This document shows positions 4,966 to 64,000 of a DNA stretch of 64,000 bases, in pieces; the first letter of the stretch is position 1; each line of letters opens with the position of its first letter. The position numbers and the translations under genes are program-made. The stretch is from the sequence record KX130862. The stretch is one strand, 5' to 3'. The stretch comes from Shigella phage SHFML-26. The notes under the pieces were generated by a model. It was not told where the DNA came from, did no database searches, and saw nothing but the letters and a program-made list of their open reading frames with translations.

Positions 4966-6782
4966 TACTGACTCATCCATTCTTTACGAAGGTCAGCATT
5001 ATCTCCCATGAGCATTTCAAAAAGCTCTTTCCAGTTCTCAGGAAGTTTAACAACATCATATACTGGGTTTTGAATCATCTCACGATATTCAGATTTTTCC
5101 AAAGAGCCAAGTCCCTTAATATAACGGATGCTATGTTTAGGTAGAGCATCTTTGGCACTCTCATATTCAGCGACTGTATAAAACCATTCTTGTTTTTTAC
5201 CGACCTGAGCGATGATTACAGGAGTTTTGACAAAACGAATTCGTCCTTGCTCAAACAATTCTGGCCAATTACTAAAAAATCCGAGCAGAGAAGGATAAAT
5301 GCTTCCTAGACCATCATGGTCAGCATCAGTCATAATAGCAATATTATGATAATTCAAGTTTTCAGCTTTTTCACCGAGAACTAATCCAGTGATTGCGCAA
5401 ATATCAAACAGTTCTTTGTTTTTAAGCATATCTGCATAAGACATACCCCAACTGTTGAGAACTTTACCGCGCAATGGATAACCACCGTGAAGTTCTTTAT
5501 CACGAACATCAATAAGATATCCGATAGCAGAATCACCCTCAGTCAAGAAAAGAGTAGTATCAGCATCTTTACCGCAAAGATTCGCTTTGATATGTTTATG
5601 AACCTTAGCTTTAGAAGCCTTTTTAGCTGCTTTAGTTTCTGCTGCTTTTTCTGCCGCCAATTTACGAGCCAAAGCAGCTTCAATAATCGGCATTAGAATT
5701 GCTTCATTATTTAGAATAGCACGTGAAATCTTTTTAGCATCAAGCTGAATATGACTACGGATTTCACCAAATGGAGAAGTCAAACGCTCTTTAGTTTGAG
5801 AATCAAATCGCATGTTTTTCATATCACGGACAAACATAACGATAGTCAAACATTCTTTAACGCGTGCTTTAGTCACATCAATTTTGAACTTACGTTTGAT
5901 TTGTGGAATAAGGTCTTCACAAATATCATCCATAACACAGTCAATGTGATGGCCACCATTCTTAGTGTGGATGTTATTCACATAAGTTAATTGACGAAAT
6001 CCATCCGGTGAACGACCAACTGCAATAGAACAATTTTCTTGTTCTTGAACAATAGCATGCTCATCATATTGGCGTGCATATTTCTTAAAATTGCCCTGAA
6101 CCTTTTTACCATTAAAGGTAAATTGAATATCAGGATAAACTACTGCAAGTGTCTGGAGACGATCTAATGTAATGTCAAGATAAACTTGGGACAGCTCATT
6201 AGTTTCAAATGACATAAAATCAGGAATGAAAGTAACACGAGTTCCTTTCCATTTTCCAGGAATATCTTCCCATGATTTATTTTCCATGCCATTTGAACAA
6301 CGAACTACAATATTATTTTGACCATCACCAGTTTCACCGACAAACATCACAGAAAAAATGTTAGTTAAACTAGAACCAACACCGTTCATACCACCGGTGA
6401 CACGTTCTTTATCATCACCGAAGTTACCACCTGCTTTTGGAATAGTCCATGCAGCAACAGGACCAGGAATTTCTTCACCGGTAGGTGTTTTAACCATCGC
6501 TTGTGGAATACCACGACCGTTATCTTCAACTGTTACTTGATTGTTTTTAATAGTAACATTAATTTTATTTGCGAATTTAAACTTAGTACGAATACCTTCA
6601 TCTACTGAGTTATCGATAATTTCATCAATAAGCTTAACAAGACCAGGTACATACTGAACACTTTCCCATTTACCAAACAGAAAGCGCTCATGCATTTCAT
6701 TAGCTGAAGAGCCAATGTACATGCCGCTACGCTTTTTGATATGTTCAATATCACTCAGAATTTTAATTTCATTCTTAATCAT
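4965..6782 (-). CDS. 39: DNA topoisomerase II large subunit (gene 39), single unsplit ORF of 605 aa
   Basis: GHKL ATPase and Toprim-like motifs (DNGRGIP, TEGDSA); ATG at 6780-6782 behind GAGGA; no gene-60 split or bypass gap. Confidence 0.9.
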   Translation of the reverse strand: MIKNEIKILSDIEHIKKRSGMYIGSSANEMHERFLFGKWESVQYVPGLVKLIDEIIDNSVDEGIRTKFKFANKINVTIKNNQVTVEDNGRGIPQAMVKTPTGEEIPGPVAAWTIPKAGGNFGDDKERVTGGMNGVGSSLTNIFSVMFVGETGDGQNNIVVRCSNGMENKSWEDIPGKWKGTRVTFIPDFMSFETNELSQVYLDITLDRLQTLAVVYPDIQFTFNGKKVQGNFKKYARQYDEHAIVQEQENCSIAVGRSPDGFRQLTYVNNIHTKNGGHHIDCVMDDICEDLIPQIKRKFKIDVTKARVKECLTIVMFVRDMKNMRFDSQTKERLTSPFGEIRSHIQLDAKKISRAILNNEAILMPIIEAALARKLAAEKAAETKAAKKASKAKVHKHIKANLCGKDADTTLFLTEGDSAIGYLIDVRDKELHGGYPLRGKVLNSWGMSYADMLKNKELFDICAITGLVLGEKAENLNYHNIAIMTDADHDGLGSIYPSLLGFFSNWPELFEQGRIRFVKTPVIIAQVGKKQEWFYTVAEYESAKDALPKHSIRYIKGLGSLEKSEYREMIQNPVYDVVKLPENWKELFEMLMGDNADLRKEWMSQ

Positions 6783-42149: not shown

Positions 42150-42620
42150 TTAATCATGTTTCCACACCCCATCGGTATTTGACCAAAGTCGCTGATTATC
42201 TGATCCTCGCCACAGCTTTTTAGTCGGAAGATTTTTCTCATACTTCCCATCAATAATAACATCAACATATTTAAGCATTTCTAGCTGTTTAATATCTTCA
42301 AACTTATATCCTGTCCACAACCAAATGCTTTTATTGGGATAAAGATTTTTAATAGTTTGAACCACAGAGTGAATCACGTCTCTGTTATCAGGATAAAGAG
42401 GGTCTCCTCCAGTTATAGTTAATCCTTCTATATAATCATTATTCAAACATTCAATCAATTGTTCTAGTGTTTCACCGGTGAATGGAATACCATTTCTAGC
42501 ATTCCATGTTGATTTATTATAACACCCTTCACATTTATGCAAACAACCTGTAACGAAAAGAACAGTTCTGCAACCAGGGCCATTCACAAAGCAGCACGGG
42601 TATATTCTGTCATAATTCAT
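42150..42620 (-). CDS. nrdG: anaerobic ribonucleotide reductase activating protein NrdG (radical SAM)
   Basis: Cys-rich radical-SAM-like cluster; start moved to MNYDRIY (ATGA overlap with upstream gene). Confidence 0.8.
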   Translation of the reverse strand: MNYDRIYPCCFVNGPGCRTVLFVTGCLHKCEGCYNKSTWNARNGIPFTGETLEQLIECLNNDYIEGLTITGGDPLYPDNRDVIHSVVQTIKNLYPNKSIWLWTGYKFEDIKQLEMLKYVDVIIDGKYEKNLPTKKLWRGSDNQRLWSNTDGVWKHD

Positions 42621-43447
42621 AATAATATCCAATTTTTCCAAGCTTCATCAGTAGAATTACAGCGTTTTAGTATAAGATGTCTAGAAACTTTTATGGCATT
42701 TGAGCACTTTTTAATTGAATCATATTTAATACCGTCAACTGAAACGGTTTTGCTAGTTGGAGAAATTTTTCCATACATTGGATTTTTTGAACCAACTTGA
42801 AGTCCTTTTAAAGCTTTTGAAAGCTTTTGTCTAGATTCCAATGACATGGGAGAATTCTTTTTACCTTCAATAATTCGCTTGCGATGAAGTTCGCGTTCTT
42901 CTTCACTCAAAGAATTGTAATATTTTTTAACACCGTTTGATATAGATAATTTATCTTTCTCAGACCGCTCTCCAGCTAATTTACTTCTAACATCTTTTCG
43001 CTTCATAGCTATGCTTACGGCTTTATTTAAATTTGCTTGATGCTCTGGCGTACGTTTATATTTCTTTAAAGCACGTGAAATAGCTATTTTAGTTTCTTCT
43101 GTTCTCTTTTTACCTTTATTTGCTAAACTATTTTTGTGGCGATGTTCAAGTGTCTGTTCATAGGCAGTTCCACCTTTTCCACCAGGTTTAATATTATATG
43201 TATTTTCTTTTAGACAATACTCTTCAGTTACAAGTTCAGCTTCTTTATCATACATTTGCTTTTCATTATCAAAAACATATAAAATTTCTTTATAAAAATT
43301 TTTTCTACCATATTTTAATAAAGCAGCACGAATCAATGTTCCTGATCCCATATAACCGTCATTTATATTATCGGTGCTATGCGCACCGATATATTCCTTT
43401 GAATTAATTATATTTGTTATTTTATAAATTATATAATACCTATGCAT
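42617..43447 (-). CDS. free-standing GIY-YIG homing endonuclease
   Basis: N-terminal GIY-YIG motifs (YYIIYKITN...EYIGAHS...YMGSG); overlaps nrdG start and nrdD end. Confidence 0.7.
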   Translation of the reverse strand: MHRYYIIYKITNIINSKEYIGAHSTDNINDGYMGSGTLIRAALLKYGRKNFYKEILYVFDNEKQMYDKEAELVTEEYCLKENTYNIKPGGKGGTAYEQTLEHRHKNSLANKGKKRTEETKIAISRALKKYKRTPEHQANLNKAVSIAMKRKDVRSKLAGERSEKDKLSISNGVKKYYNSLSEEERELHRKRIIEGKKNSPMSLESRQKLSKALKGLQVGSKNPMYGKISPTSKTVSVDGIKYDSIKKCSNAIKVSRHLILKRCNSTDEAWKNWILL

Positions 43448-45257
43448 GTTTTACTCGTTTTACCATTTCTTTCATTTTACCTAAATTCCATGGAACAACG
43501 CTAGGAGTTCCAAGATATCCGCATGTTCTTCTTATTGTATTCATCTTTTTAGGATCAGTTTCTCCACAAATAGAACAAACAAATCCGTTTTCAGTAGGAG
43601 TCATTTCATGGGTACTTCCGCATGTAAAACACTTATCTACTGGCATGTTAACACCAAAATAATCTAAATGTTGTACAGCATAATCCCATACAGCCTCAAG
43701 ACCTTTTAGGTTATTTTTCATATCAGGAAGTTCAACATAAGAAATGTGACCACCTGTCGCAATGAAATGATATGGCGCTTCACGAGAAATTTTTTCAAAC
43801 GGAGTAATATTTTCTTCTACTGAAACGTGGAAACTATTAGTGTACCAGCCTTTATCGGTAACATCTTTTACACTTCCATATTTTTCTGTATCAAGTTTAC
43901 AGAAGCGATAACAAAGGTTTTCAGCAGGAGTCGAATATAAACTAAAAGCAAATCCAGTTCTTTCAGTCCACTGTTTAAGATGAGCATTCATTTTAGTTAA
44001 AATTTCTTGTCCAATATCACGACCGACAAGAATATTCAATTCGTGAATACCAATGTATCCTAGGGACACTGAACTTCTACCATTTTTAAATAACTCAATT
44101 ATATCGTCATCAGGTTTAAGACGAACCCCGAATGCACCTTCTTGGTAAAGAATAGGAGCAACAGTCGCTTTAACTCCTTTTAAGGAACTAATTCTACACA
44201 TCAAAGCTTCAAAACATAAATCCATTCGTTCATTGAATAATTCAACAAATTTCTGTTCATTGAACTGTGTTCCAATATAAGAATCTAACGCGATGCGAGG
44301 AAGATTCAGTGTTACAACACCAAGATTATTACGTCCATCAAGAATTTCATTACCAGTCGAATCTTTCCATACGCTCAAGAAACTACGGCAACCCATTGGA
44401 GAAACAGGAATAGATGAACCAGTGATAGCTTTATTGTTCTTAGCTGAAATAATATCAGGATACATTCTTTTGCTTGCACACTCTAGAGCAAGCTGCTTAA
44501 TATCATAGTTCGGATCGTCTTTATAAAGATTAACACCTTCTTCAACAAACATAACAAGCTTAGGGAAAATAGGAGTTATCCCATCACGACCAAGACCTTT
44601 AATACGATTTTTCAGAATTGCTTTCTGAATCATTCGTTCAGTCCAGTCAGTTCCTGTACCAAATGTAATTGTTACAAAAGGAGTCTGTCCGTTTGAACTA
44701 AAGAGAGTATTTACTTCATATTCATAAGCTTGGAATGCATCGTATACGTCTTTTTCTGTTTTAGATTGAGCATAATTTAACGCATCAGCGATTTGCCATT
44801 TTTCTGCATCCTCAATATGTTTTGCATAGGTGCGTTTAACATAAGGAGAAAGTACTTTATCTACATTAGCAAAAGTCGTTCCGCCGTATTGGTGAGAAGC
44901 AACCTGTGCAGTAATTTGTGCCATAATTGCAGTAGCAACGCCAATTGATTTAGGAGTTTCAATCTGCGCATTACCTAGCTTAAATCCGTTCTCAAGCATT
45001 CCTTTTAAATCTACTAAACAGCAATTAGTAAATGGAAGAGCAGGGGAATAATCAATATCGTGGAAATGAATAATTCCGCTTTCATGCGCTTTCATAATAA
45101 AAGACGGGACCATATTTTTGGCAATGTGTTTAGACACAATACCAGCCATAAGGTCCCGTTGAGTTGGAAAAACACGAGAATCTTTATTAGCATTCTCGTT
45201 TAAAAGGTCTTTATTAGTTTTATGAATCAATCCTTCAATTTCTTTTTCAATTGTCAT
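43440..45257 (-). CDS. nrdD: anaerobic ribonucleoside-triphosphate reductase NrdD (intronless)
   Basis: 605 aa; C-terminal glycyl-radical region and Cys-rich zinc site; continuous ORF. Confidence 0.9.
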   Translation of the reverse strand: MTIEKEIEGLIHKTNKDLLNENANKDSRVFPTQRDLMAGIVSKHIAKNMVPSFIMKAHESGIIHFHDIDYSPALPFTNCCLVDLKGMLENGFKLGNAQIETPKSIGVATAIMAQITAQVASHQYGGTTFANVDKVLSPYVKRTYAKHIEDAEKWQIADALNYAQSKTEKDVYDAFQAYEYEVNTLFSSNGQTPFVTITFGTGTDWTERMIQKAILKNRIKGLGRDGITPIFPKLVMFVEEGVNLYKDDPNYDIKQLALECASKRMYPDIISAKNNKAITGSSIPVSPMGCRSFLSVWKDSTGNEILDGRNNLGVVTLNLPRIALDSYIGTQFNEQKFVELFNERMDLCFEALMCRISSLKGVKATVAPILYQEGAFGVRLKPDDDIIELFKNGRSSVSLGYIGIHELNILVGRDIGQEILTKMNAHLKQWTERTGFAFSLYSTPAENLCYRFCKLDTEKYGSVKDVTDKGWYTNSFHVSVEENITPFEKISREAPYHFIATGGHISYVELPDMKNNLKGLEAVWDYAVQHLDYFGVNMPVDKCFTCGSTHEMTPTENGFVCSICGETDPKKMNTIRRTCGYLGTPSVVPWNLGKMKEMVKRVKHA

Positions 45258-50842: not shown

Positions 50843-50850
50843 AGTGTTCC

Positions 50851-52157: not shown

Positions 52158-52212
52158 AATAATCTCAATTAAAAGGGCTTAGAACCATTATACCATCCTT
52201 GGTATAAAGCGG

Positions 52213-52740
52213 TTATGCGAGTACCGTCTTTAACCGTTCTTCAAACTTCCGAAGAGTATTCTGGCGTTCAGCTCTTTGCTTTTTGTAAGTTTCAATACGC
52301 TCTGAAATGAGAGTGTATCGTTCATTTACTGATTCTTTCATAAAATCAGGAATTTCACGAGAAGCTTTAATCTCATCAAATTTATCAATAACAGCTTGCT
52401 CTTCAGCAATTAAGTTATCATACATCAAAATATCTTTCTTGATGAACTCAATATCTTCTTGAGTTACACGAGATAATTTAGATGCTTTATCCTTTTTGTA
52501 TTGTTCGTTAGTATCACGAGACCAGTGTAATGTACGATTTTTATTCGTATTCTTGTAAATTTCTACAATACCAATCTCATCAATAATAACGATCCAATTC
52601 CAACGGGATTTGTAAATTTGTCCTCCATCAACTGTAATTTCACCTCCGATTGAGATGTCATTAAAGAACTTGCTTTGTGCTTCAGATTTAAATTTACCAT
52701 CGTTGTAATTTACCAGGTTGAAAATATCTTTAGCGTTCAT
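52213..52740 (-). CDS. hypothetical protein
   Basis: Start moved to MNAKDIF behind GGAGG and early promoter. Confidence 0.5.
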   Translation of the reverse strand: MNAKDIFNLVNYNDGKFKSEAQSKFFNDISIGGEITVDGGQIYKSRWNWIVIIDEIGIVEIYKNTNKNRTLHWSRDTNEQYKKDKASKLSRVTQEDIEFIKKDILMYDNLIAEEQAVIDKFDEIKASREIPDFMKESVNERYTLISERIETYKKQRAERQNTLRKFEERLKTVLA

Positions 52741-52800
52741 TTTGTGTTCCTCCGTAGTTGATAGTTGTATAGTACCACAGAGGAACGGTCTTGTAAACAA

Positions 52801-53115
52801 CTAAAAGAAACTTCTTTCACAATTTTTTCCACTGAACCAAGCGCTCACTGCTTTCTTAGTCTCAGGAGCGGTGTTATCCATAAACCATTCAAAGGCAGCC
52901 TTTTTATGATTCTGGAGGGCTTCTCGGGCTTTAATCTGCTCACGGTCTATTAACACTAACATATGAGCCTTTCTTGTCACCATGGGCTTCTTATGATTTT
53001 TTGAATACTCCCAATCATTTGTCCATCGCATTGTCGTTGCGAACTGAAATACTGCTTCTTTAATTTTAGTTTCGTAAATTTCACGAGCCTTTGAGTATAA
53101 CATCATTACCTCCAT
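52801..53115 (-). CDS. hypothetical protein
   Basis: ORF track. Confidence 0.45.
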   Translation of the reverse strand: MEVMMLYSKAREIYETKIKEAVFQFATTMRWTNDWEYSKNHKKPMVTRKAHMLVLIDREQIKAREALQNHKKAAFEWFMDNTAPETKKAVSAWFSGKNCERSFF

Positions 53116-53205
53116 TTACCAGTTTAATTCTAGTCATCTTTTTAATGGCAGTCCATATAATCTATTTCTGAACTGCCTTTTTGTCTTAGAAGTCCTCTTA
53201 TGAAT

Positions 53206-54174
53206 TTATTTCAGAAGAGTAACCTCAGCGATTTCTTCCCAACCGTTTTTGTCGGTCATAATAAAGTCAGCAAGATAAAGAGCAGTACGCAGTGAAACAT
53301 TACGTAAACGGTTAACATTGACTTTCATCCATGATAATGCTTTATAAGTTTCTTCATCAGAAAGACCGCGCTTTTGCATCATGTCGGTTGAAAGAATAAC
53401 ATCTTCAACCCTGACCATAATTTCTTCATTAGTGTGAACACCCAAATCTAAATAAACTGAGCGGGACACTAATGCTTGTAAATGTGGAGCAAGTTTAGTA
53501 CCACGGTCTAATTCGCGGTCAATATCAACGTTTGTGATAAAAACAATTGTTCCTTTAAATTCAAACTCACGGTCAATGCCTTTTTCTTCTAAGTAAGAAG
53601 ATGCAGTGCTCCAGCAGACTTTACGGGTCTCTCCAGTGTCCAGAGCAGCTTTCAGAAGATTAAGAATGTCCATATCAGAGAAAACATCCACATCATCAAT
53701 CAAAAGGACAGAATTCTCTTCACGATTATTCCAAAGCTGCTCATAAAGACCAATACCAGAGATTTTACCATTAATGCTTTTATATTCAATGTATCCAATA
53801 TCATTTGCTTTATTCAAAGCTTTATCTAAAGAATACGTTTTACCAATACCCGCCGCACCAGAGATAATTAATGAACGAATGTTTCCGTTAATAATACCAT
53901 TCGTCATCATTCCCATAACATTAAATCTTTTATTAATGCGGGTTTTCATATCTTCATACGATTCTTTAACTTCTTCAACTTTTACACCATCATATGAAAT
54001 GTCTGATTTGTAAACCCAAACACCGCGACGCTTACCGTCAATTTCAACAAAAACTTTACCATCTCCTTGTGCATCTACCGGAGCATTATCTGGGAACCAT
54101 TCGCCTAAGAGCTCAAAAGTTCCAGAGATTTCTTTACCGAAGTAGATACCCTTATTGATAGTTACAGTTTTCAT
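53206..54174 (-). CDS. P-loop NTPase (Walker A GAAGIGKT, Walker B VLLIDDVD)
   Basis: Motifs read in translation; start moved to MKTVTINKG behind GGAG. Confidence 0.6.
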   Translation of the reverse strand: MKTVTINKGIYFGKEISGTFELLGEWFPDNAPVDAQGDGKVFVEIDGKRRGVWVYKSDISYDGVKVEEVKESYEDMKTRINKRFNVMGMMTNGIINGNIRSLIISGAAGIGKTYSLDKALNKANDIGYIEYKSINGKISGIGLYEQLWNNREENSVLLIDDVDVFSDMDILNLLKAALDTGETRKVCWSTASSYLEEKGIDREFEFKGTIVFITNVDIDRELDRGTKLAPHLQALVSRSVYLDLGVHTNEEIMVRVEDVILSTDMMQKRGLSDEETYKALSWMKVNVNRLRNVSLRTALYLADFIMTDKNGWEEIAEVTLLK

Positions 54175-54180
54175 TTTATT

Positions 54181-54217
54181 CTCCAAATCCGTATTAGTTG
54201 ATAGTTGTATAGTACCA
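54181..54217 (-). repeat. conserved promoter-leader cassette (copy 3, one mismatch)
   Basis: 37-mer with single substitution. Confidence 0.6.
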
Positions 54218-54238
54218 TAAAGCTTTATGCTTGTAAAC
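54209..54238 (-). promoter_or_regulatory. T4-type early promoter upstream of P-loop NTPase gene
   Basis: GTTTACA ... TACTAT. Confidence 0.5.
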
Positions 54239-54254
54239 CGTTTTGTGAAAAATT

Positions 54255-54287
54255 TTTGAAATAAAAAAGGGAGCCCGAAGGCTCCCT
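54255..54287 (-). terminator. intrinsic terminator after nucleotidyltransferase gene
   Basis: GGGAGCCUUCGGGCUCCC then UUUUUUAUUU. Confidence 0.65.
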
Positions 54288-54288
54288 A

Positions 54289-55302
54289 TCATTTATAATA
54301 ACTTCGGTGGTTTTCAAGATAGACCTTCTCAAGGAAGTCATCCCAGAAACCCATGTCTACTTTTTGCTGCATACCGTTCTTAGAAGCTTCAGTAGATGCT
54401 GCTTCTACTTGATCGACCACATCTTCCAAAAACTCTTGAACCGTTTTAAATGGATGTTTACCCAACTTCACGTCGAGAATAAATGGAGCGTCTTGAAGTG
54501 GATAAATCAAGTCGCCAGTTTTGTAAATTTCCAATAGTTGGAGTCCACCACGACAAGCATGGCTCAGAGCTTTCCAGTCAATACCTTCATTGGCTTCAGC
54601 CTTACGAGCGCGTTCACCATATTCAGCATCTAATTTGTTCAGTGACTGCTTAAGCTCAATAAGAGAAAGAGTTGTCTGATATTTACGACCCAACACTGTG
54701 TAAAACGTCTGTGGGCCTGTTTTCTCATGATTATGGAACACCCATTCACAGAATTCGTTTTCTGGAAGACGATGCTTAATATCTTCAACTTTAGTGCGAC
54801 GCTGCTTAATAGAACCATCTTCTTGATAATCAATCCATTGCTCAGGGATTTGATTAACTACTTTCAATACATCACGTAATGCAGCCAAACGAGAACCCTT
54901 GACACCGTATTTAGAAGCTTGCTTACGGACATATCCTAAATAGGATTTCATGTTAGTCGTATAAAAACGAGAACGGTTGTCTTGAATAAACTTCCATACA
55001 TCAGGCAAATCGGATTTAACCACTAGTTCAGGTGGAGTGTGAAGCATATCCAACGCTACAGTTTCACCATCTGCTGCTAATTTAAAGAAATACTTAAGAC
55101 TGTATAGTTCATGGTCAATATCATCTTTAGTGTTTTTAGATGATGTGTTGTTAGTGTTTTTACTCATATGCTCTTTAACATTTCCGATAAGAATATCGCG
55201 AGCAGGAGGAACAAAGATTTCTTTAAAATCTACATCAGATTCTGGGGTAGAAGTTCCATAAAGATGACTACCAAAATAGCTTTTCATTACTGTTTTCATC
55301 AT
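54289..55302 (-). CDS. Pol-beta-superfamily nucleotidyltransferase-like protein
   Basis: N-terminal GS...D.D signature (GSHLYGTSTPESDVDF). Confidence 0.55.
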   Translation of the reverse strand: MMKTVMKSYFGSHLYGTSTPESDVDFKEIFVPPARDILIGNVKEHMSKNTNNTSSKNTKDDIDHELYSLKYFFKLAADGETVALDMLHTPPELVVKSDLPDVWKFIQDNRSRFYTTNMKSYLGYVRKQASKYGVKGSRLAALRDVLKVVNQIPEQWIDYQEDGSIKQRRTKVEDIKHRLPENEFCEWVFHNHEKTGPQTFYTVLGRKYQTTLSLIELKQSLNKLDAEYGERARKAEANEGIDWKALSHACRGGLQLLEIYKTGDLIYPLQDAPFILDVKLGKHPFKTVQEFLEDVVDQVEAASTEASKNGMQQKVDMGFWDDFLEKVYLENHRSYYK

Positions 55303-55760
55303 TCAGCCTTATATTCAATAACAGGACATACTTTAGCTTTACGAGCTTTTAAAAATTCAACGATAATCGATTTCTTGGGTTGAATAGGAGGTAAACCTTT
55401 ATACGCCCTATCAATATTTTCTACGTGTAAAGCATAATCCTTTTTCCATTTATAATCTTTATATTTTTCACGCAAATGTGCAGGAATAACAAATGAACCG
55501 ATAATAAGTAAAACAACCAAAAGCGCAAGTATAAATGCCGATGGAAGAAGAGTCCATAAACTACCGAAAATAAGCCAACGTTGTAGGCTTTCTGCACAAA
55601 TAATTGTTAGCCCTACGAGTATAGCACATCCAAAAATAGAAACGAAAAATGTAGGAATGGCAATAGACCAAAAATATGCGCATAGTGTCTTAGGTCGTTG
55701 CCATTCATCGTTAAATAGTTTAAATAATTTATAGTGCCAAGAGTTTTCATTAATAATCAT
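55299..55760 (-). CDS. membrane protein (multiple TM segments)
   Basis: ORF track; ATGA overlap with nucleotidyltransferase gene. Confidence 0.5.
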   Translation of the reverse strand: MIINENSWHYKLFKLFNDEWQRPKTLCAYFWSIAIPTFFVSIFGCAILVGLTIICAESLQRWLIFGSLWTLLPSAFILALLVVLLIIGSFVIPAHLREKYKDYKWKKDYALHVENIDRAYKGLPPIQPKKSIIVEFLKARKAKVCPVIEYKAE

Positions 55761-55762
55761 AA

Positions 55763-56284
55763 TTATCCTTTCATTGAAGGCGTAACAGTTGTTAAATACT
55801 TAATCATAGCCTCAGCTTCTGATTTTGATAATGAAATTTCTCCATTGTTTTGACGAATAGAAATAAAATCCGGATGACGGTCACCACCAGCTTTTAAAAC
55901 ACACATATAAGTATCAGTTTCATCTTCAATATTTGAAATGATTGAAGCAGTTCCACATGAATGCGGTTTTTGATAAATCAATACAGCTTTTCTTCCGCCA
56001 TTTGACTGTTCATAAACTTTTAATACATCAAACAAATCACTTCTTTTATCAATAGCTAAAATGTTATTTTCATCTTCAATGTTAAATCCTTCGGATACTT
56101 CATAAAGTGTCACCCATAAATCGCCAATATCAATAACAGCGTTCACTTTTCCATGACTTTCAAGAGCATGACAAATTTTCTTGATTTCGTCATAACTCAT
56201 TTTAATAATATCATCTCCTTGAATAAGAAAGATGTCATTTTTAAATTCAACACGAATTAAACCACTTCCACTTGAAATAAACAT
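55763..56284 (-). CDS. hypothetical protein, paralog of 56291..56848
   Basis: Similar architecture and C-terminal motif (KYLTTVTPSM vs KTYLDSVIPTM). Confidence 0.5.
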   Translation of the reverse strand: MFISSGSGLIRVEFKNDIFLIQGDDIIKMSYDEIKKICHALESHGKVNAVIDIGDLWVTLYEVSEGFNIEDENNILAIDKRSDLFDVLKVYEQSNGGRKAVLIYQKPHSCGTASIISNIEDETDTYMCVLKAGGDRHPDFISIRQNNGEISLSKSEAEAMIKYLTTVTPSMKG

Positions 56285-56290
56285 ATTTCC

Positions 56291-56848
56291 TCACTTTGAA
56301 ATCATAGTTGGAATGACAGAATCAAGATAAGTCTTTAGTGCAATAGCTTCGTCTTTGGTAAATGTGACAATATGTGATCGAAAATCGTCGATTTGGCGAA
56401 TAGTTAAGACATCTCCCTCTTCATAACATTTTGATACATTTAAAAGAGTTTCATCATTCTGATTGCAAGCGTTAGTAATAATAGCATTGCAATTTTTGAG
56501 CCATTTTAAACTATGTTTTCTTTCATTAGAATAATAAAAATATTTAATCTTAGCTATAAAACTATCCCAATGGATAACTGATAAACACATTGACTCACTT
56601 TTAATATTAAATCCTGGGCATGAAGAATAAAAATGAATTTTGTGCTCATCATTGATACTTACTATTTTATCAGTATAAGGATATTCAATTTGGGTTAAAT
56701 GAATGATTTCACTAGGCGTAAAATATAGCATATCGTCTTCTTGCGTCAAACGATACATGTTATTTACTTTTTCTATAGCCAATTCACCAAAAAGCGGACT
56801 AACTTCTAATACTAATCGTTTCATATTGATTCTCTTCGACTCACTCAC
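56291..56848 (-). CDS. hypothetical protein, paralog of 55763..56284
   Basis: ORF track; early promoter upstream. Confidence 0.5.
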   Translation of the reverse strand: MSESKRINMKRLVLEVSPLFGELAIEKVNNMYRLTQEDDMLYFTPSEIIHLTQIEYPYTDKIVSINDEHKIHFYSSCPGFNIKSESMCLSVIHWDSFIAKIKYFYYSNERKHSLKWLKNCNAIITNACNQNDETLLNVSKCYEEGDVLTIRQIDDFRSHIVTFTKDEAIALKTYLDSVIPTMISK

Positions 56849-57015
56849 AATTACATACTCCTTTGAATAATATCAATAATGTTGTTCATCAGATTATAAG
56901 TAAACATTGGGTAATTATATTGAATCATTACATACACAACAAACAAAACTTTCATTCTCTTCTCCTTGACAGTTGACAAGATTACTATACCATAACCTTG
57001 CCAACTTGTAAACCG

Positions 57016-57189
57016 TTAAATGTTGTTTTCAATAAAATTCTGAAGCTTTGTGTGAGCATCAACCATGATTTTCATTTCTTCCTTTGCGAAAGCTGTACCT
57101 CTTTCCCGAGCAGAATACTCATAGTCAGAAACTGCATTAGCATATTCTTCAATTAGCTTCATTAAAAACATCTGCTTTTCAGTTTTCAT
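57016..57189 (-). CDS. small protein (57 aa) starting MKTEKQ
   Basis: Own translation; shares N-terminus with 57376..57579. Confidence 0.35.
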   Translation of the reverse strand: MKTEKQMFLMKLIEEYANAVSDYEYSARERGTAFAKEEMKIMVDAHTKLQNFIENNI

Positions 57190-57373
57190 TATTCCACCTA
57201 ATCATTTCAAGATATTGGACTAACTTAGCTTTAGATTTATCCAAATCCCTTTTAGCTGATTCTATACCATCGTATGAATATCCTTCACAATGCTCAACTG
57301 CTAATTGATATGAATCTATTTCAACATCACGTGCTAATTTAATGATTTTTTCAAACTGTTCGTGCGTTAGCAT
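57179..57373 (-). CDS. hypothetical small protein
   Basis: ORF track. Confidence 0.4.
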   Translation of the reverse strand: MLTHEQFEKIIKLARDVEIDSYQLAVEHCEGYSYDGIESAKRDLDKSKAKLVQYLEMIRWNNEN

Positions 57374-57375
57374 AC

Positions 57376-57579
57376 TTAAACTCTCGTATTATGATCGATA
57401 ATTTCATCAAGAAACATATCTAACGCTTCTAAAGCATTATCGACTTTAGTTTCAAAGTCTTTAATGCCTTTATTCGAAATACCCGATGAATACCAAGCAA
57501 AGTCAATCAGCTCTTCATCTGCTTTACGAATTGAAGCCACTAATTCCTTAATTTTATCCGCTTGCTTTTCAGTTTTCAT
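57376..57579 (-). CDS. small protein (67 aa) starting MKTEKQ
   Basis: ORF track 57376..57615 trimmed to MKTEKQ. Confidence 0.4.
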   Translation of the reverse strand: MKTEKQADKIKELVASIRKADEELIDFAWYSSGISNKGIKDFETKVDNALEALDMFLDEIIDHNTRV

Positions 57580-57767
57580 TATTCCACCACATATGACAGA
57601 GAGAATATTGCACACGCCATATGAGTTGCAGCTTCATCACACATATCATAACGTTTCTTAAGAAGTTCTACAAGTTCTTCACTAGTAACTTCATCCATGT
57701 CGACGAAAAAATCACCATTAATGATGACGTAGATATTTCCTTCTTGATTAAGTGCTTCAATTTTCAT
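57579..57767 (-). CDS. hypothetical small protein
   Basis: Start moved to ATG 57765-57767 behind GAGGAG and early promoter. Confidence 0.4.
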
Positions 57768-57830
57768 GATGTTCTCCTCTTTATCCGATAGTTGTATAGT
57801 ATCACAGTTCAAATGGAAAGTAAACCGGTA

Positions 57831-57857
57831 AAATGAAAAAAGTCTCCCGAAGGAGAC
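57831..57857 (-). terminator. intrinsic terminator
   Basis: GUCUCCUUCGGGAGAC then UUUUUUCAUUUU. Confidence 0.6.
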
Positions 57858-57862
57858 TAATG

Positions 57863-58249
57863 TTATTCGAGGGAAAGAAGATATTTACTCTGGTAAAACA
57901 TCCCAGTAATATCATCTATCGTGCTTTGAATGGCTGGAGGCATTTCTTTATAAATGCTGTTAGATTGGTCTAGTATGCGATCAATCATTTTAATTGTGTC
58001 GGTAGGAAGTTTACTGGCATCTGGAATAGAAGGCGTGTATTTTCTACCAGAATACCCCAAATATTGCTCACCAAATTTATCAATCAAATCTGGCAACTCA
58101 GAGAAAATAAAATCGTATGCTTTGTGTCTAGCATAACTTTTAGTTTCAAAATGCGCAGAATGAAAATAAGCTTGTGCAGCCATTAATAAACCTAAGTATT
58201 CATCTGCCTTTGAAGGTTTTCCACTTTGTGAAAAGTCGCTGAATTTCAT
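57863..58249 (-). CDS. hypothetical protein (rI.1 position)
   Basis: ORF track; ATGA overlap with rI. Confidence 0.5.
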
Positions 58250-58539
58250 TCAGTCTCCAATTTAATGTTCATAATTCTAGCGTATGATTGTGCCATCTCC
58301 GCGCCTCGCTCTATACATTCAAAATCAGAAGAGCACGGGTCATTTTTATAAGTCGTTCGCATAAAACTATAGAACTGTTCAGATGATTCTACGCTTTTAT
58401 TTTCAAAAAGCATATAAACGTGTCTAATACCAGATTCCATAAATTTATCAAAATGAGGATCGACATTCGCTTCAATTGGTGGAGATAAAGCAAACGCTAA
58501 TCCTAGCATGGCAAATAGTGCCGTTGCTTTTAAGGCCAT
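58246..58539 (-). CDS. rI: lysis inhibition regulator RI (signal-anchored)
   Basis: 97 aa with N-terminal signal; recognised RI sequence. Confidence 0.7.
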   Translation of the reverse strand: MALKATALFAMLGLAFALSPPIEANVDPHFDKFMESGIRHVYMLFENKSVESSEQFYSFMRTTYKNDPCSSDFECIERGAEMAQSYARIMNIKLETE

Positions 58540-58551
58540 AAAGGCCTCCTA

Positions 58552-58764
58552 TCATTTTTGTCCTGTATTTACTTTATGCCGATGCACGGCCTTAACTTTA
58601 TCAAGGTATTTTTCAAAATTTCGCAATCTAGTATAGTCTGCCGGAGATTGGTTGAGTGATACTTCTCGACGCAAAGCTGAAATGATATTTCCAACTTCCC
58701 TACGAATTTCATCTAATTGAAGAACAGTAAGATTGCGAAGTTGCTTTTCAGTTAATTGTAGCAT
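58552..58764 (-). CDS. hypothetical protein
   Basis: ORF track; late promoter upstream. Confidence 0.45.
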
Positions 58765-58789
58765 ATATACCCCTTTAGTTAGATAAACC

Positions 58790-58797
58790 TATTTATA
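58790..58797 (-). promoter_or_regulatory. T4 late promoter TATAAATA upstream of 58552..58764 gene
   Basis: Exact TATAAATA on minus strand. Confidence 0.5.
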
Positions 58798-58806
58798 ACT
58801 TTTGCA

Positions 58807-59388
58807 CTAACCGAGCTTTTTAGTTAATTCGTTCCAATGTTTTCTACACAAAGAAACATAAATTTCATCACCAATACAGATTTGATTACCTTCTTTAACT
58901 GGTGTTCCATCTTCCATTAATCGAGCTGTCATAATAGCTTTTTTACCACAATGACAAACTGCCTTTAGTTCAATAAGTTTATCTGCAATCGCCAAAAGTT
59001 CTTTAGAACCTTCAAATAATTTTCCAGCGAAATCAGTCCTTAGCCCATAAGCCATAACAGGAACATTATATGTATCAACAATTCGACTTAATTGATGCAC
59101 CTGTTCGGTTTTTAAAAACTGAGCTTCATCTACAAATACACAATGAATATCTTTTTGTGCTTCAGCCCATTTATAGAACTCAAAAATATCCATATCATCC
59201 GTAATAATATTCGCTTCCTGCTTAATTCCAATGCGAGAAACGACTTCACAGACAGAATCACGAGTATCAATAGCAGGCTTAAGAACTAATACACCCATTC
59301 CGCGTTCTTTATAATTATGTGCAGCAGTCAAAAGAGAAGCAGATTTTCCAGCATTCATTGCTGCGTAAGTAAAAATTAAACTCGCCAT
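58807..59388 (-). CDS. tk: thymidine kinase
   Basis: 193 aa; P-loop AAMNAGKS; C-terminal zinc Cys pairs. Confidence 0.9.
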   Translation of the reverse strand: MASLIFTYAAMNAGKSASLLTAAHNYKERGMGVLVLKPAIDTRDSVCEVVSRIGIKQEANIITDDMDIFEFYKWAEAQKDIHCVFVDEAQFLKTEQVHQLSRIVDTYNVPVMAYGLRTDFAGKLFEGSKELLAIADKLIELKAVCHCGKKAIMTARLMEDGTPVKEGNQICIGDEIYVSLCRKHWNELTKKLG

Positions 59389-59397
59389 ATCACCTTC

Positions 59398-59583
59398 TTA
59401 AAGCGTATTCACATAAGCTATTAATTCGTTTTCTTTCTTATCAAACCGATCAGCAAATTCTTCTTGCTGATCGGGAGATAGCGGGCCGTATTCATCATAA
59501 AAGGTGTTTGCTTCTGTATGCTCATCTAGAAGTTCATGGATAAGCTCAAACAATTTATCTTTTTGTTCTTTACTCAGACTCAT
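59398..59583 (-). CDS. hypothetical acidic small protein
   Basis: ORF track. Confidence 0.4.
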   Translation of the reverse strand: MSLSKEQKDKLFELIHELLDEHTEANTFYDEYGPLSPDQQEEFADRFDKKENELIAYVNTL

Positions 59584-59753
59584 ATATTAATTTCCAGGAG
59601 TTTTAAAATAATTCGCTTTTGCTTAAATATTTCCATAGTTAAATGACCAGTATCTTTTTGACCGATTCCAATGGCAAAACCTTTATTGACAGCGAGTTCA
59701 ATTAAATTATCAAGCTCACGTAACACTTCATATTGTAACTCAAAACTATTCAT
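59580..59753 (-). CDS. small protein (57 aa)
   Basis: Own translation MNSFELQYEVLRELDNLIELAVNKGF...; ATGA overlaps at both ends. Confidence 0.35.
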   Translation of the reverse strand: MNSFELQYEVLRELDNLIELAVNKGFAIGIGQKDTGHLTMEIFKQKRIILKLLEINI

Positions 59754-59962
59754 TTTGGTTTACCTTCTTTAACGAAATCAGGATAAGGATAAAATCCTGA
59801 ATAAAATCCTTCACCTTTATGATTGATGCATCCTTTATTAGAACAATAGCACCAATAATCGAAATCACAAGCCATTTCATCATTACATAAAGCAAAAACA
59901 ATCGGCCATTCACACTTTTCGCAGTGGGCATTTTTAAGAATACTAGTTTGGCTCATAACCAT
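59750..59962 (-). CDS. Cys-rich small protein (putative zinc-binding)
   Basis: ORF track 59750..59977 trimmed to internal Met; many Cys. Confidence 0.4.
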   Translation of the reverse strand: MVMSQTSILKNAHCEKCEWPIVFALCNDEMACDFDYWCYCSNKGCINHKGEGFYSGFYPYPDFVKEGKPK

Positions 59963-60165
59963 GTAACCTTTAAACAATATTCTTCTACATGTTGTTTACG
60001 ACCTTTCCTATCAATAAAGGTATATTCAACGAATGTTCCAATATAGTCTTTATCTACATCATGTGGACTATTAATTGGGCATTTAGTACGGCAAATGCGT
60101 TCCCATTGACGAATAATTTCCACTTTGTTTTTAGGATCAAACGGATGCGGGTAATGTACTTTCAT
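59953..60165 (-). CDS. hypothetical protein
   Basis: ORF track. Confidence 0.4.
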   Translation of the reverse strand: MKVHYPHPFDPKNKVEIIRQWERICRTKCPINSPHDVDKDYIGTFVEYTFIDRKGRKQHVEEYCLKVTWL

Positions 60166-60616
60166 AATCCACCACTATTAAATCAATATCAGGAGTAAAC
60201 ATGTCGATTAATTTAGAAACCTTATCCCAATCGCCGCCAGCAATACCGCAACCTATGCGTGGAATGTAAATTACTGGTTTAAACAAAAGGGTTTCTGCCT
60301 GTAGATTTAATTCTATCATGCAGTTTACTAAAGCACCATAATCAAGATTAGGACCCGGTTCGTATTGTGTATACAGGTTATAGCATATACCAAATCCCGT
60401 AGGACTATGTTTAAAAACAATAGACATATCGCCTAATTTATCACGAGAACCGTACTCGGTAGTGGTTTTATCTATTTCTAAAATTTTGGGATAGGCTCTT
60501 GCTAATTGACCTGCTACGCCAGAGCCCATTGTGTGGAAGCAATTGCACCCGTGCGCAATAATATTACCTTGAAGAAATAGGGCGACAATATCGCCCTTGA
60601 TATATTTTACAATCAT
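60137..60616 (-). CDS. macro-domain (ADP-ribose-binding/processing) protein
   Basis: Motif HGCNCFHTMGSGVAGQ resembles macro-domain NAAN + G-rich loop. Confidence 0.5.
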   Translation of the reverse strand: MIVKYIKGDIVALFLQGNIIAHGCNCFHTMGSGVAGQLARAYPKILEIDKTTTEYGSRDKLGDMSIVFKHSPTGFGICYNLYTQYEPGPNLDYGALVNCMIELNLQAETLLFKPVIYIPRIGCGIAGGDWDKVSKLIDMFTPDIDLIVVDYESTLPASV

Positions 60617-60954
60617 CTAGTACTCAATCCTCGATTATAAGAATCTACTAAACGGTCAACCATTGAATGACAAGCGGCTTTATCTTTCTCCTCCGCAACT
60701 GAACATTCTAAGGTATTCCACTTTTTAGCATATCGTTTTAACAATGTATCATTTTTGTATCTGCTTGATTTATCTCTTTCTCCGTCTTTATATGCATATA
60801 TTAATTTCTGCGCAAATTCAGCTTGGCATGCTTTATTTTTCCCGCAATAATCCGCTGCAGTACGGTTTACATACTCTCTAATTTCAGTATATGATGTATC
60901 TGCTAACGCAGAAAATGAAATTAATCCTATACATAAAACCAAAATTTTAGTCAT
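60613..60954 (-). CDS. secreted protein (signal peptide)
   Basis: ORF track; N-terminal signal sequence. Confidence 0.45.
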   Translation of the reverse strand: MTKILVLCIGLISFSALADTSYTEIREYVNRTAADYCGKNKACQAEFAQKLIYAYKDGERDKSSRYKNDTLLKRYAKKWNTLECSVAEEKDKAACHSMVDRLVDSYNRGLSTR

Positions 60955-61321
60955 TTACTATTTCCAAAAGTTTATTATTTTTAAGGTAATTAGCCTTTTC
61001 TAGGACTTCAGAAGCATATTTAGAACCTGCTTTAACATTCCATCCCGAATTATAAGAGGATATTGCTTTTCTTATATCGCCCTTATGTATATTTAACCAA
61101 TAAGAAAGTTCAATGTACGCCCAGGAAGCTGAATTGGACCGTTTATTCAACATTCTTTTTATTTCAGCATCGGTCATATTATAACCAAGTTCCTTGACTC
61201 TCGCTCGCATAGTAGGCAAATAATTTTGGAACATTCCATAGGCATGATGCTTTGGTTTAGATTTTAAATTAACTCCGGCAGAGCTTTCTTGCCACAAAAT
61301 AGCAGCCATTATATGACCCAA
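60947..61321 (-). CDS. lytic-transglycosylase-like (SLT domain) protein
   Basis: ES...AYGMFQ-type SLT motif. Confidence 0.5.
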   Translation of the reverse strand: MGHIMAAILWQESSAGVNLKSKPKHHAYGMFQNYLPTMRARVKELGYNMTDAEIKRMLNKRSNSASWAYIELSYWLNIHKGDIRKAISSYNSGWNVKAGSKYASEVLEKANYLKNNKLLEIVND

Positions 61322-61491
61322 TCCGCTCTTATGGATGTTTTTGTGTGTTTTATATTTTCCATCCTTAGAAAATTGTTCCCGAATTGATACGCGTAACGCA
61401 TGTTATCGAGTTGGACATTACTGAAAGTATGCTCGGAGCTATGTGCCATCATTGAAATGGCCAATAGACCAGCGAGTAGTGCTTTTCTCAT
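61309..61491 (-). CDS. small secreted protein
   Basis: ORF track; signal-like N-terminus. Confidence 0.35.
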   Translation of the reverse strand: MRKALLAGLLAISMMAHSSEHTFSNVQLDNMRYAYQFGNNFLRMENIKHTKTSIRADWVI

Positions 61492-61498
61492 GCTTACC

Positions 61499-61960
61499 TC
61501 ATTGAGTTTTAATTACTGCTTTAGAAGCCTTTCCTGGTAAACGACGACTGTTGATAATTGCCATCCTGCATTGAAGTGACGGGTTTTTGAACTTCTCATT
61601 AGGCTTACAAACCGTAAATCCAAGCCAAAGATTTCCATCTGTGATTTCTAAACGTCCAGGACGATATTCAACCCCATCAATAAAATCCTCGTCAATGTCA
61701 GGACGCGGAGGCATACTCAGGAATTCATTAACTTCTAAAACATGGTCTTTTATTTTATGGAATAATTCAAAAACATATGTCTCATCAATCTCCCGTTGAA
61801 TTGCACGATCAAGAAGATGTTGAGAATATTTTAGATGAAACGATGAGACTCCTGCTGCTTTTGATGCCTCACGAATCTCATTGTTAATTTGACGAAACTC
61901 CGACTCAAAATGACGACGAAGCTTATTTCGACGGATAAAAACTTCTGTATTGATAGTCAT
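61499..61960 (-). CDS. regB: RegB endoribonuclease
   Basis: 153 aa; recognised RegB sequence; early promoter upstream. Confidence 0.8.
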   Translation of the reverse strand: MTINTEVFIRRNKLRRHFESEFRQINNEIREASKAAGVSSFHLKYSQHLLDRAIQREIDETYVFELFHKIKDHVLEVNEFLSMPPRPDIDEDFIDGVEYRPGRLEITDGNLWLGFTVCKPNEKFKNPSLQCRMAIINSRRLPGKASKAVIKTQ

Positions 61961-61987
61961 GTTGTTCTCCTCTTAACTGATAGAAAA

Positions 61988-62017
61988 ATTATACCACAGT
62001 CAAGAGGAAAAGTAAAC
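61988..62017 (-). promoter_or_regulatory. T4-type early promoter upstream of regB
   Basis: GTTTAC ... TATAAT. Confidence 0.55.
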
Positions 62018-62019
62018 AG

Positions 62020-62340
62020 TTATTCTTTAAATCTAATCAATTTATTCATAGACTTTGAAACTTCTGCACGAACCTCATGTAGATTTTTGAGCTGTTCAAG
62101 ACGCTGCGTATAGTAAGCAATTTCATCTTCTTCGAGACAGTCCTGTGAATCTTCTTTAAGATAACGTGCATAGTCCTGGAAAGCGTTACGGACTACTTCC
62201 TGGAAATCATCAAGACTTTGAATTTTCTTAGGAGCAACAGATACACGACGAGGGGCAGTATAATACTCATAACCAAACCCTGCGCTTAATTGAGCCATTA
62301 GTATTTTTCCTCTGGTTGGAACACTGCACGACAAGCCCAC
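62020..62340 (-). CDS. hypothetical protein (vs.3 position)
   Basis: ORF track. Confidence 0.45.
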
Positions 62341-62564
62341 ATACTGGATTCTTTGAGTTTCGTTTTAGCAATAGTTAACTGATCGAGGCTTTCGGCGTAA
62401 TTCTTCGCGAGTTCATCATCTTCACAGCTATCAAATGCTTCCCAAAATTCATCGTATAAAGCATCAAAGATAAGTCCTAAACGAACTTCAGCGTCTTTAA
62501 TAGCATTTACTTTACCGATTTTTTCGTCGGTATGTGGCTTATAACCTTTAATATCTTCAATCAT
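62298..62564 (-). CDS. hypothetical protein (vs.4 position; possible Acb2-like cyclic-nucleotide sponge)
   Basis: ORF track trimmed to MIEDIKGY; assignment by position only. Confidence 0.35.
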
Positions 62565-62778
62565 ATTTGACTTCCTCACCAGTACATAAATCGTATTCAA
62601 CTAAACGAATAGGTTCATGAATGCCATATCCCTGAACAGAAATTTCTGTAGTAGGATAAATTCCATTAATATCACCCATGTTCCATGCTTCGTTAAATTG
62701 CTGTTCGCCTGAATTACTAAACCATTCGGCGAAAGCATTTAGCACATCTTCAGAACCTTCAATAATTATCTTTGCCAT
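62557..62778 (-). CDS. hypothetical protein
   Basis: ORF track. Confidence 0.4.
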   Translation of the reverse strand: MAKIIIEGSEDVLNAFAEWFSNSGEQQFNEAWNMGDINGIYPTTEISVQGYGIHEPIRLVEYDLCTGEEVKYD

Positions 62779-63140
62779 TACAAACTCTCGGTAAAGGTAC
62801 GAGCGATAACATCGCGCTGCTGTTCCGGAGTCAGAGAGTTAAAGCGAACTGCATAACCGGATACACGGATGGTCAGCTGCGGATATTTTTCCGGATGCTT
62901 AACTGCATCTTCCAGAGTTTCACGACGCAGAACGTTAACGTTCAGGTGTTGACCACCTTCAATTTTAACTGTAGGCTGTTGCTCAATTTCAATTTCACGG
63001 GCATGCAAACCGTAGAAAATTTCTGGGTCTACAAAAGAGTCCTCTTTAAAGGTTTTAGAGACAATAATTCGTGCTTGAATACCATCTTCAAAATAAATAG
63101 TACCTTTATGTGTGCCTTCAAGAATTTGATATGCTTTCAT
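62778..63140 (-). CDS. autonomous glycyl-radical cofactor-like protein (GrcA/YfiD-like)
   Basis: C-terminal glycyl-radical motif [11 protein letters not shown]. Confidence 0.6.
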
Positions 63141-63147
63141 ATAAACC

Positions 63148-63528
63148 TCAATTAGAAAATAAATTTATCCAAGATTGTTCTTTAATTAAAAACGGCTCAG
63201 AATCATATGCCATTAAACTTTGCGTAATTAATCCTTTAAAAGGTCCATCAATAAATTCCATGGTAAAATATGGAATTTTATTCATTAGCCGTGCATTAGG
63301 AGCAGTGCACAAAACTCTGCATCCTTTGAATACGCCTTTTTGTAATTTGTATTGCTTAGGATAAAATTCGCTTAAAATGTTATTTTTTGCCAAAATTTCA
63401 AAATGATTCACCAATTTATTTTTAATAGTTTTTGGCGAAAAATAAAGATATTCGAAAAGCTGAGTGTCTGTCATCATTGCATTCCGATTACGAAAAACTG
63501 CGGACGAGTAATACCACCAATGCAACAT
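63148..63528 (-). CDS. hypothetical protein
   Basis: ORF track. Confidence 0.4.
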
Positions 63529-63977
63529 TTACTATTACAGCAGTGTTGCACAGTTTCAATATGAATATCGTAAATTTTATCCATATCAGGAGATTTAACA
63601 GGCTCATCGATTATATACAAAATTCGCGAAAGAGATAAACCTCTGAACTTGCTTCCTTTATTACCGATAAAACTACGGACAGAATCAGTAAATAAGCGGA
63701 ATCGAATATCATCACTAGAATAACGAGAAAATTCTTTTTTAATGTGGCCTGCAGAAATTTTAGCGTAAGCTGAAGTATTAGAAAGAACAATAACTGTTCC
63801 ACCGTCATACAGCCAATTAGCAGCAAAGTTAGTCACAGCAGTTGATTTACCAGATTGGCGTCCACCATCTAGTCGAAGTGTACAATATTGTTTAAGCAAG
63901 TCTTCAAATGGTGGGGTATAATCGTTTTTACAAATTTCTTCTACTCTAGCATCAGAATGGTGTGTAAAAGCATTCAT
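63474..63977 (-). CDS. P-loop-containing hypothetical protein
   Basis: Walker A-like GGRQSGKST. Confidence 0.45.
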   Translation of the reverse strand: MNAFTHHSDARVEEICKNDYTPPFEDLLKQYCTLRLDGGRQSGKSTAVTNFAANWLYDGGTVIVLSNTSAYAKISAGHIKKEFSRYSSDDIRFRLFTDSVRSFIGNKGSKFRGLSLSRILYIIDEPVKSPDMDKIYDIHIETVQHCCNSKCCIGGITRPQFFVIGMQ

Positions 63978-64000
63978 CAGGGATAGATAAGGACCAGTTA

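Follow-up and report, generated by a model that had tools for sequence, protein, structure and literature searches.

The gene at positions 62778..63140 (minus strand) of the window, by which I mean the whole 64,000-nt stretch of Shigella phage SHFML-26 DNA (sequence record KX130862) analysed here, is, judged by its sequence, the orthologue of T4 vs.6 (product Y06I) and a phage-encoded version of the E. coli protein GrcA/YfiD. The best explanation of the evidence as a whole, to which I assign a probability of roughly 0.87, is that its product serves as a spare part, restoring host pyruvate formate-lyase (PFL) that has been cleaved by oxygen. The feature is already known and in itself nothing new: it is annotated as GrcA in RefSeq and in hundreds of phage genomes, and its biochemically characterised T4 orthologue, Vs.6/Y06I, has been a validated PFL spare part since 2001. 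The DNA of the gene has a history of its own, and I take vs.6 to be a phage gene of long standing in which host grcA DNA has, on at least two occasions, taken the place of the half that encodes the plug.

A preliminary description of the gene also saw in it a GrcA-type spare part, for oxygen-damaged NrdD or for another host glycyl-radical enzyme. The spare part and the host enzyme as its target have stood up; NrdD as the target, NrdG as the activase and the adjacency of vs.6 to the genes of these two proteins have not.

The Gene and Its Surroundings

The list of open reading frames gives the gene exactly the ends stated above, with an ATG start, 120 aa and a TAA stop. A Shine-Dalgarno sequence, GAGG, can be read on the same strand at 63146..63149, 5 nt 5' of the ATG, where it overlaps the TGA with which the upstream gene, vs.7, ends, and the stop of vs.6 is shared with the start of the next gene in the form TAATG. 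Promoter-like sites within 61900..64000 number 8, as compared to 6.8 expected from shuffled sequences, and terminator-like sites in the same region number 1, as compared to 1.2 expected, an excess in neither case. Since promoter-like sites are not in excess, vs.6 is taken to be read within the gene string vs.8-vs.7-vs.6-vs.5-vs.4-vs.3-regB.

The 2 kb surrounding vs.6 share 97% identity with many genomes of Tequatrovirus (T4-like), several of which label the gene "autonomous glycyl radical cofactor", and the window is that of a T4-like phage, Tequatrovirus. In T4 and in Shigella phage Sf21, where the RefSeq name of the gene is "autonomous glycyl radical cofactor GrcA", the genes run tk ... vs, vs.1, regB, vs.3, vs.4, vs.5, vs.6, vs.7, vs.8, and the reading frames of the window follow the same order. 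The window gene is identical to T4 vs.6 (NP_049730.1) at 118 of 120 amino acids and at 356 of 363 nucleotides, the two amino acid changes being Q54 (P54 in T4) and R73 (H73 in T4). Its product matches phrog_1209 over the full length of the protein (5.7e-63, residues 1-120 on profile positions 1-121 of 121), and by both sequence and synteny it belongs to the Vs.6/Y06I phage family that goes by this number.

Homologues of vs.6 were found by tblastn in 1,587 phage records, from T4-like Straboviridae, T5-like Demerecviridae, and phages of Aeromonas and Vibrio. Some of these records name the gene "2-ketobutyrate formate-lyase", and one T5-like phage, IME178, has both a GrcA-like gene and nrdD. Nolan et al. 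(2006; PMC1524935) counted vs.6 among the ORFs common to all of the T4-like genomes they compared and noted its Gly_radical match.

The neighbours of vs.6 offer some observations in their own right. Two genes downstream lies the vs.4 homologue (62298..62600, minus strand), with a match of E=2.4e-18 to Pfam Acb2_Tad1_hairpin (PF24729), to which belong phage sponges that act on cyclic-nucleotide immune signals (anti-CBASS/Thoeris); its reading frame as called begins with TTG and runs to 100 aa, and its relatives are annotated with 88 aa. Upstream, the vs.7 reading frame (63148..63528, minus strand) is called with 126 aa and a 55-nt overlap with vs.8. Since its PHROG match begins only at residue 18 and its relatives have 109 aa, the true start is probably an internal ATG. 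The vs.8 homologue (63474..63977, minus strand) contains a Walker-A-like sequence, GGRQSGKST, and has a weak match to AAA_14 (E=0.0096, under the cut-off). In one related record, a gene of the vs.8 stretch bears the name "terminase large subunit", which is probably a mis-annotation.

A PFL-Type Glycyl Radical Domain

Profile and database scores put the similarity of Vs.6 to glycyl-radical and GrcA proteins far above chance. Against Pfam Gly_radical the protein scores 67 bits (E=2.5e-18), where the gathering cut-off is 22.2 bits, and the match covers residues 60-101 on profile positions 65-106. The E. coli GrcA of PDB entry 6OWR is matched with E=9e-42 and PflB with E=5e-26, and the best of the NCBIfam matches is to TIGR04365 spare_glycyl (1.2e-45). 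RVSGYAVRF, which the preliminary description had picked out as the glycyl-radical signature, occupies residues 92-100 (62841..62867, minus strand), and the sequence TIRVSGYAV at residues 90-98 conforms to the PROSITE-type glycine-radical pattern [STIV]-x-R-[IVT]-[CSA]-G-Y-x-[GACV]. HMMER alignments pair the radical glycine, G95 (codon GGT at 62856..62858), with G102 of GrcA and G734 of PflB.

The alignment to GrcA/YfiD that the same description had called for conserves the glycine-radical motif and, beyond that, shows all 60 of the C-terminal 60 residues of Vs.6 to be identical to those of the E. coli protein. Identity to residues 697-759 of PflB amounts to 49 of 63. The N-terminal half is far less similar: the HMMER alignment to GrcA extends in that direction only to residue 22, and the score of Vs.6 against TIGR04365, the GrcA equivalog model, is 154.9 bits, under the curated equivalog cut-off of 170 bits, which applies to the score of the whole protein. 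What keeps the score low is the N-terminal half, whose relationship to YfiD is distant, and I therefore class the protein with the GrcA-like proteins as a phage subfamily, Vs.6, and not as an equivalog of GrcA in the strict sense. The head of the protein (residues 1-59) does have a distant homologue in the disordered half of YfiD (residues 1-60). An AlphaFold2 model of Vs.6 made from the single sequence had a mean pLDDT of 34.8 and was unusable. In other respects Vs.6 has the traits of GrcA: it is a stand-alone glycyl radical domain without a catalytic barrel, encoded with its own ribosome-binding site and stop; it carries the glycine-radical signature; and its C-terminal half duplicates PFL residues 693-759. 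The idea of an autonomous glycyl-radical protein of the GrcA/YfiD type is thus borne out by the Pfam, PDB and NCBIfam matches alike.

The preliminary description went further and placed the gene alongside nrdD and nrdG, so that Vs.6 might be a spare glycyl-radical domain of the phage's NrdD, activated by the phage's NrdG. Both genes are indeed within the window: nrdD (class III ribonucleotide reductase; Pfam NRDD 3.6e-171) lies at 43440..45257 and nrdG (the NrdD activase; Pfam Fer4_12 1.6e-48 plus Radical_SAM) at 42150..42641, both on the minus strand. They are, however, separated from vs.6 by about 17.5 kb and by dozens of genes. Gene order is kinder to the idea in Aeromonas phage Ah1, where the vs.6 homologue comes directly after nrdG inside an nrd cluster; Nolan et al. 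likewise guessed, from the Pfam match, a function in nucleotide metabolism (PMC1524935); and spare parts for further glycyl radical enzymes have been raised as a possibility (PMC8683613). Against it, a BLASTP comparison of Vs.6 with the window's NrdD gives E=3.8, that is, no detectable similarity, and on this result the idea was rejected. The glycine loop of NrdD, IRRTCGYLG at residue 575, follows a CxxC...CxxC stretch, whereas the TIRVSGYAV of Vs.6 stands in a PFL-type context, as does the loop of even the Ah1 copy that adjoins nrdG. Vs.6 lacks similarity to the R-x-C-G-Y-L-G region that follows CxxC...CxxC and is not an NrdD-type domain. The identity of its plug to host GrcA, and its high identity to PflB, also argue against NrdD, and the published biochemistry of Y06I (PMC8683613) concerns PFL and the PFL activating enzyme (PFL-AE). 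Activation by an NrdG-type enzyme is unsupported, and service to NrdD as a spare domain is very improbable.

An observation unrelated to Vs.6 concerns the region between nrdD and nrdG, where a 276-aa reading frame (42617..43447, minus strand) overlaps both genes. It has matches to NUMOD3 and to the I-TevI DNA-binding domain and resembles a free-standing homing endonuclease; nrdD itself is an uninterrupted reading frame of 605 aa.

The "other host glycyl-radical enzyme" of the preliminary description is most plausibly PFL, as indicated by the identity of the plug to that of GrcA and by the literature on Y06I. It is conceivable that Vs.6 serves additional or other host enzymes of the PFL family, such as the 2-ketobutyrate formate-lyase TdcE, since the C-termini of these enzymes are very similar. 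In the search of E. coli DNA, the median number of homologous places was three per genome, the gene of Klebsiella phage JD18 matches the C-terminal regions of both pflB and tdcE, and there is the label in some phage records already mentioned. Nonetheless, PFL is the sole enzyme whose rescue has been shown for any GrcA, according to PMC8683613, and I give this extension of the function a slim chance.

Host DNA in the 3' Half of the Gene

The two halves of vs.6 differ in origin, to judge by their DNA. The 3' half, or tail (62778..62962, minus strand; residues 60-120 and the stop), matches E. coli grcA by blastn in 5,426 of 5,426 complete genomes, with 97.3% identity over nt 179-363 of vs.6, while the 5' half, or head (62963..63140, minus strand; residues 1-59 and the first base of codon 60), has no blastn match in the same 5,426 genomes. 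Identity to grcA begins abruptly at codon 60/61 (..AAA ATT / GAA GGT GGT..) and continues without a mismatch for 151 nt (62812..62962). The five differences from E. coli grcA are all synonymous and are grouped in the last 12 codons. The GC content of the head is 0.34, the same as the window average, and that of the tail 0.49; the corresponding GC3 values are 0.22 and 0.43, the latter equal to the GC3 of E. coli grcA. The border within the mosaic falls where, in YfiD, the structured plug domain begins.

Positions 1-50000 of the window produced no match by megablast against the 5,426 E. coli genomes. With positions 50001-64000, all of the matches listed fall on the vs.6 stretch, the grcA match at 62774..62962, and among the matches listed one record is pflB, at 79% over 62794..62963. 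Since identity to pflB DNA is merely about 79%, as compared to 97% for grcA, the donor of the tail was grcA, and pflB was rejected as the source of the host-like DNA.

Could the tail have come to resemble grcA without any transfer of DNA, by convergence of codon usage added to amino acid constraint? The tails of T4, the window and the Mosigvirus JS09 differ from that of E. coli with dS of only 0.05-0.12. Enterobacterial grcA tails that encode the same protein differ from E. coli with dS from 0.36 (Citrobacter) to 1.0 (Salmonella), and with even the Citrobacter value exceeding those of the phages, convergence was rejected. An artefact of assembly or contamination was also rejected, since some 500 independent phage genomes, reference T4 among them, show the mosaic. 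When T4 is compared with JS09, dS is 0.49 for the head and 0.12 for the tail; the head has a pN of 0.053 and a pS of 0.358, the mark of purifying selection. The Tequatrovirus and Mosigvirus tails have 97-98% identity to Escherichia grcA. In a neighbour-joining tree of the 180-nt tail, the grouping of Tequatrovirus, Mosigvirus and Escherichia has a bootstrap support of 97%, and nowhere do the phages form a clade by themselves.

Recurrence in Other Phages

A similar relationship is seen with a different host. In Klebsiella phage JD18 (Jiaodavirus; L084, 223..585), the vs.6 tail is 95.4% identical to the grcA of K. pneumoniae and 87% identical to that of E. coli. The tails of vs.6 in Klebsiella T4-like phages have a GC content of 0.55-0.56 (0.56 in JD18), and in 77 phage records, nearly all of them named as Klebsiella phages and about 166 kb in length, the corresponding segment is 95-97% identical to the K. 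pneumoniae gene. Within Jiaodavirus, JD18 and PKO111 (L093, 223..585) have heads identical at 175 of 180 positions (dS 0.14) and tails identical at only 164 of 180 (dS 0.43). PKO111 is a phage of K. oxytoca, and no donor for its tail was found among the grcA genes compared, which did not include that of K. oxytoca. No phage tail reached 95% identity to Salmonella grcA, which might have made a third pair of this kind, and so the matching of tail to host is not universal. The tails of CC31, RB49, Earwig, PF-CE2, Cronuts, Aeromonas phage 31 and T5-like phages appear to have diverged long ago from all of the bacterial grcA genes tested.

These comparisons point to a replacement of the tail by Escherichia grcA DNA in Tequatrovirus/Mosigvirus and to a separate replacement by Klebsiella grcA DNA in Jiaodavirus. 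Both probably came about during infection, through homologous recombination between the phage and the DNA of its host. A more far-reaching proposal is that the tail is repeatedly overwritten by the grcA of the current host, a concerted evolution by recombination that would keep the spare part matched to PflB and PflA. I consider the odds on this to be about even: the replacement may be ongoing and adaptive, or it may come down to two lucky events. The searchable literature, which omits key subscription papers, contained no description that I could find of the host-identical 3' half or of its recurrence in Klebsiella phages.

Whatever its cause, the tail of vs.6 is a clear case of the flow of DNA from host to phage, and into a virulent phage whose DNA contains hydroxymethylcytosine. 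A tail that matches the host could mark the recent host history of a phage, and it could serve as a model for how auxiliary genes of phages stay compatible with the partner proteins of the host.

Two peculiarities of the bacterial records came to light in these searches. In Klebsiella aerogenes NCTC10006 (LR134122.1; L091, 200..583), the reading frame of grcA is disrupted immediately ahead of the glycine loop and the CDS as annotated stops short, probably through an error of sequencing or assembly. Several of the matching "plasmids" in PLSDB are multi-megabase records, evidently whole chromosomes.

Proposed Function

Residues 61-127 of YfiD are known from the literature to fold like PFL residues 693-759, into a beta strand, the glycine loop and a helix, and the disordered residues 1-60 to assist in binding to cleaved PFL and in activation. 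The radical on G102 of GrcA is handed to C419 of PflB, and PflA is required (PMC12338860). The host's PFL activating enzyme installs the radical on Y06I of T4 as well as on YfiD of E. coli, and both proteins restore PFL cleaved by oxygen (Wagner et al. 2001, as related in PMC8683613). Orthology, motif, domain identity, gene order and DNA mosaic have been computed here for the window gene; activation by PFL-AE and the rescue of cleaved PFL are carried over to it by analogy with the T4 orthologue and E. coli YfiD.

The sequence of events would then be as follows. In an infected enterobacterium at low oxygen, oxygen would cut the host's PflB at its radical glycine, G734. Vs.6 would bind to the cleaved enzyme, its C-terminal 60 residues standing in for the lost beta-strand, glycine loop and helix of PflB. 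The host activase PflA would place a radical on G95 of Vs.6, and this radical would restart catalysis by way of Cys419 of PflB. [quoted passage not shown] As to what the phage gains, I infer that it would be ATP, via acetyl-phosphate, and formate as a reductant for the phage's NrdD, hence dNTPs.

Class III ribonucleotide reductases use formate as their reductant, and the literature discusses a formate site in T4 NrdD (PMC4493059). Since formate is also a product of PFL, a connection between Vs.6 and NrdD is plausible, but an indirect one, and the association of vs.6 with NrdD and NrdG made by the preliminary description is best corrected in this sense: the likely link to the anaerobic ribonucleotide reductase of the phage is through the supply of formate. 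In Aeromonas phage Ah1 (L096), the vs.6 homologue (5001..5384) is found within the series nrdA-nrdB-nrdD-nrdG-vs.6-nrdC-nrdH and overlaps the stop of nrdG by 4 nt, its loop still of the PFL type. This context is the best hint that gene order gives of an indirect service to anaerobic dNTP synthesis.

One consideration against a spare part for PFL is that the host's own GrcA already supplies an identical plug. The value of the phage copy may lie in its expression after the host is shut off or in its differing N-terminal half. A quite different idea is that Vs.6 is a decoy, titrating PflA or blocking PflB to stop the fermentation of the host, or else is a captured host fragment with no function at all: the N-terminal half is strongly unlike that of host GrcA, and the 3' half is plainly captured host DNA. 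A decoy or a dead fragment is hard to reconcile with the report that Y06I restores PFL activity (PMC8683613). Nor would one expect from it an intact reading frame with its own ribosome-binding site, conserved in 1,587 phage genomes of two phage families, or a head held under purifying selection (pN/pS about 0.15). I regard it as the least credible of the explanations considered. In the searchable literature, which leaves out most subscription journals, I came upon neither an in vivo phenotype for a vs.6 mutant nor any measurement made during anaerobic infection.

Comparison with Known Systems

The closest cellular counterpart of Vs.6 is E. coli GrcA/YfiD (P68066; 6OWR; TIGR04365), also a stand-alone protein, of about 14 kDa, with the same last 60 residues, radical glycine included. 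GrcA has 127 aa, as compared to the 120 aa of Vs.6, and the N-terminal halves of the two are weakly similar. At the DNA level, vs.6 shares with grcA the 3' 185 nt at 97% identity, but unlike grcA it is part of a gene string in a virulent phage and has a 5' half with the base composition of the phage. Both proteins presumably work by the same mechanism, a PflA-dependent rescue of cleaved PflB. The C-terminal glycyl radical domain of PflB (residues 693-759) has the same RVSGYAVRF loop and is the part for which Vs.6 would substitute; the catalytic barrel of PflB, about 690 residues, is absent from Vs.6. The glycyl radical domain of the phage's NrdD shares with Vs.6 the Pfam Gly_radical match and a glycine loop with G-Y, but differs in its activase (NrdG), in its loop (IRRTCGYLG) and in the lack of any pairwise similarity.

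Among phages, the Vs.6 of T4 is likewise encoded between vs.7 and vs.5 and is likewise a mosaic. Its tail is identical to E. coli grcA at 177 of 180 positions, the differences being two that are synonymous and the codon change to H73, as compared to five synonymous differences in the tail of the window gene; R73 of the window allele is the state found in host GrcA. The mosaic itself has a parallel outside this family. The psbA gene of cyanophages, an auxiliary metabolic gene, has reportedly undergone intragenic recombination between host and phage and is said to carry host-derived patches, much as vs.6 does, in a different gene, a different group of hosts and a different lineage of phages.
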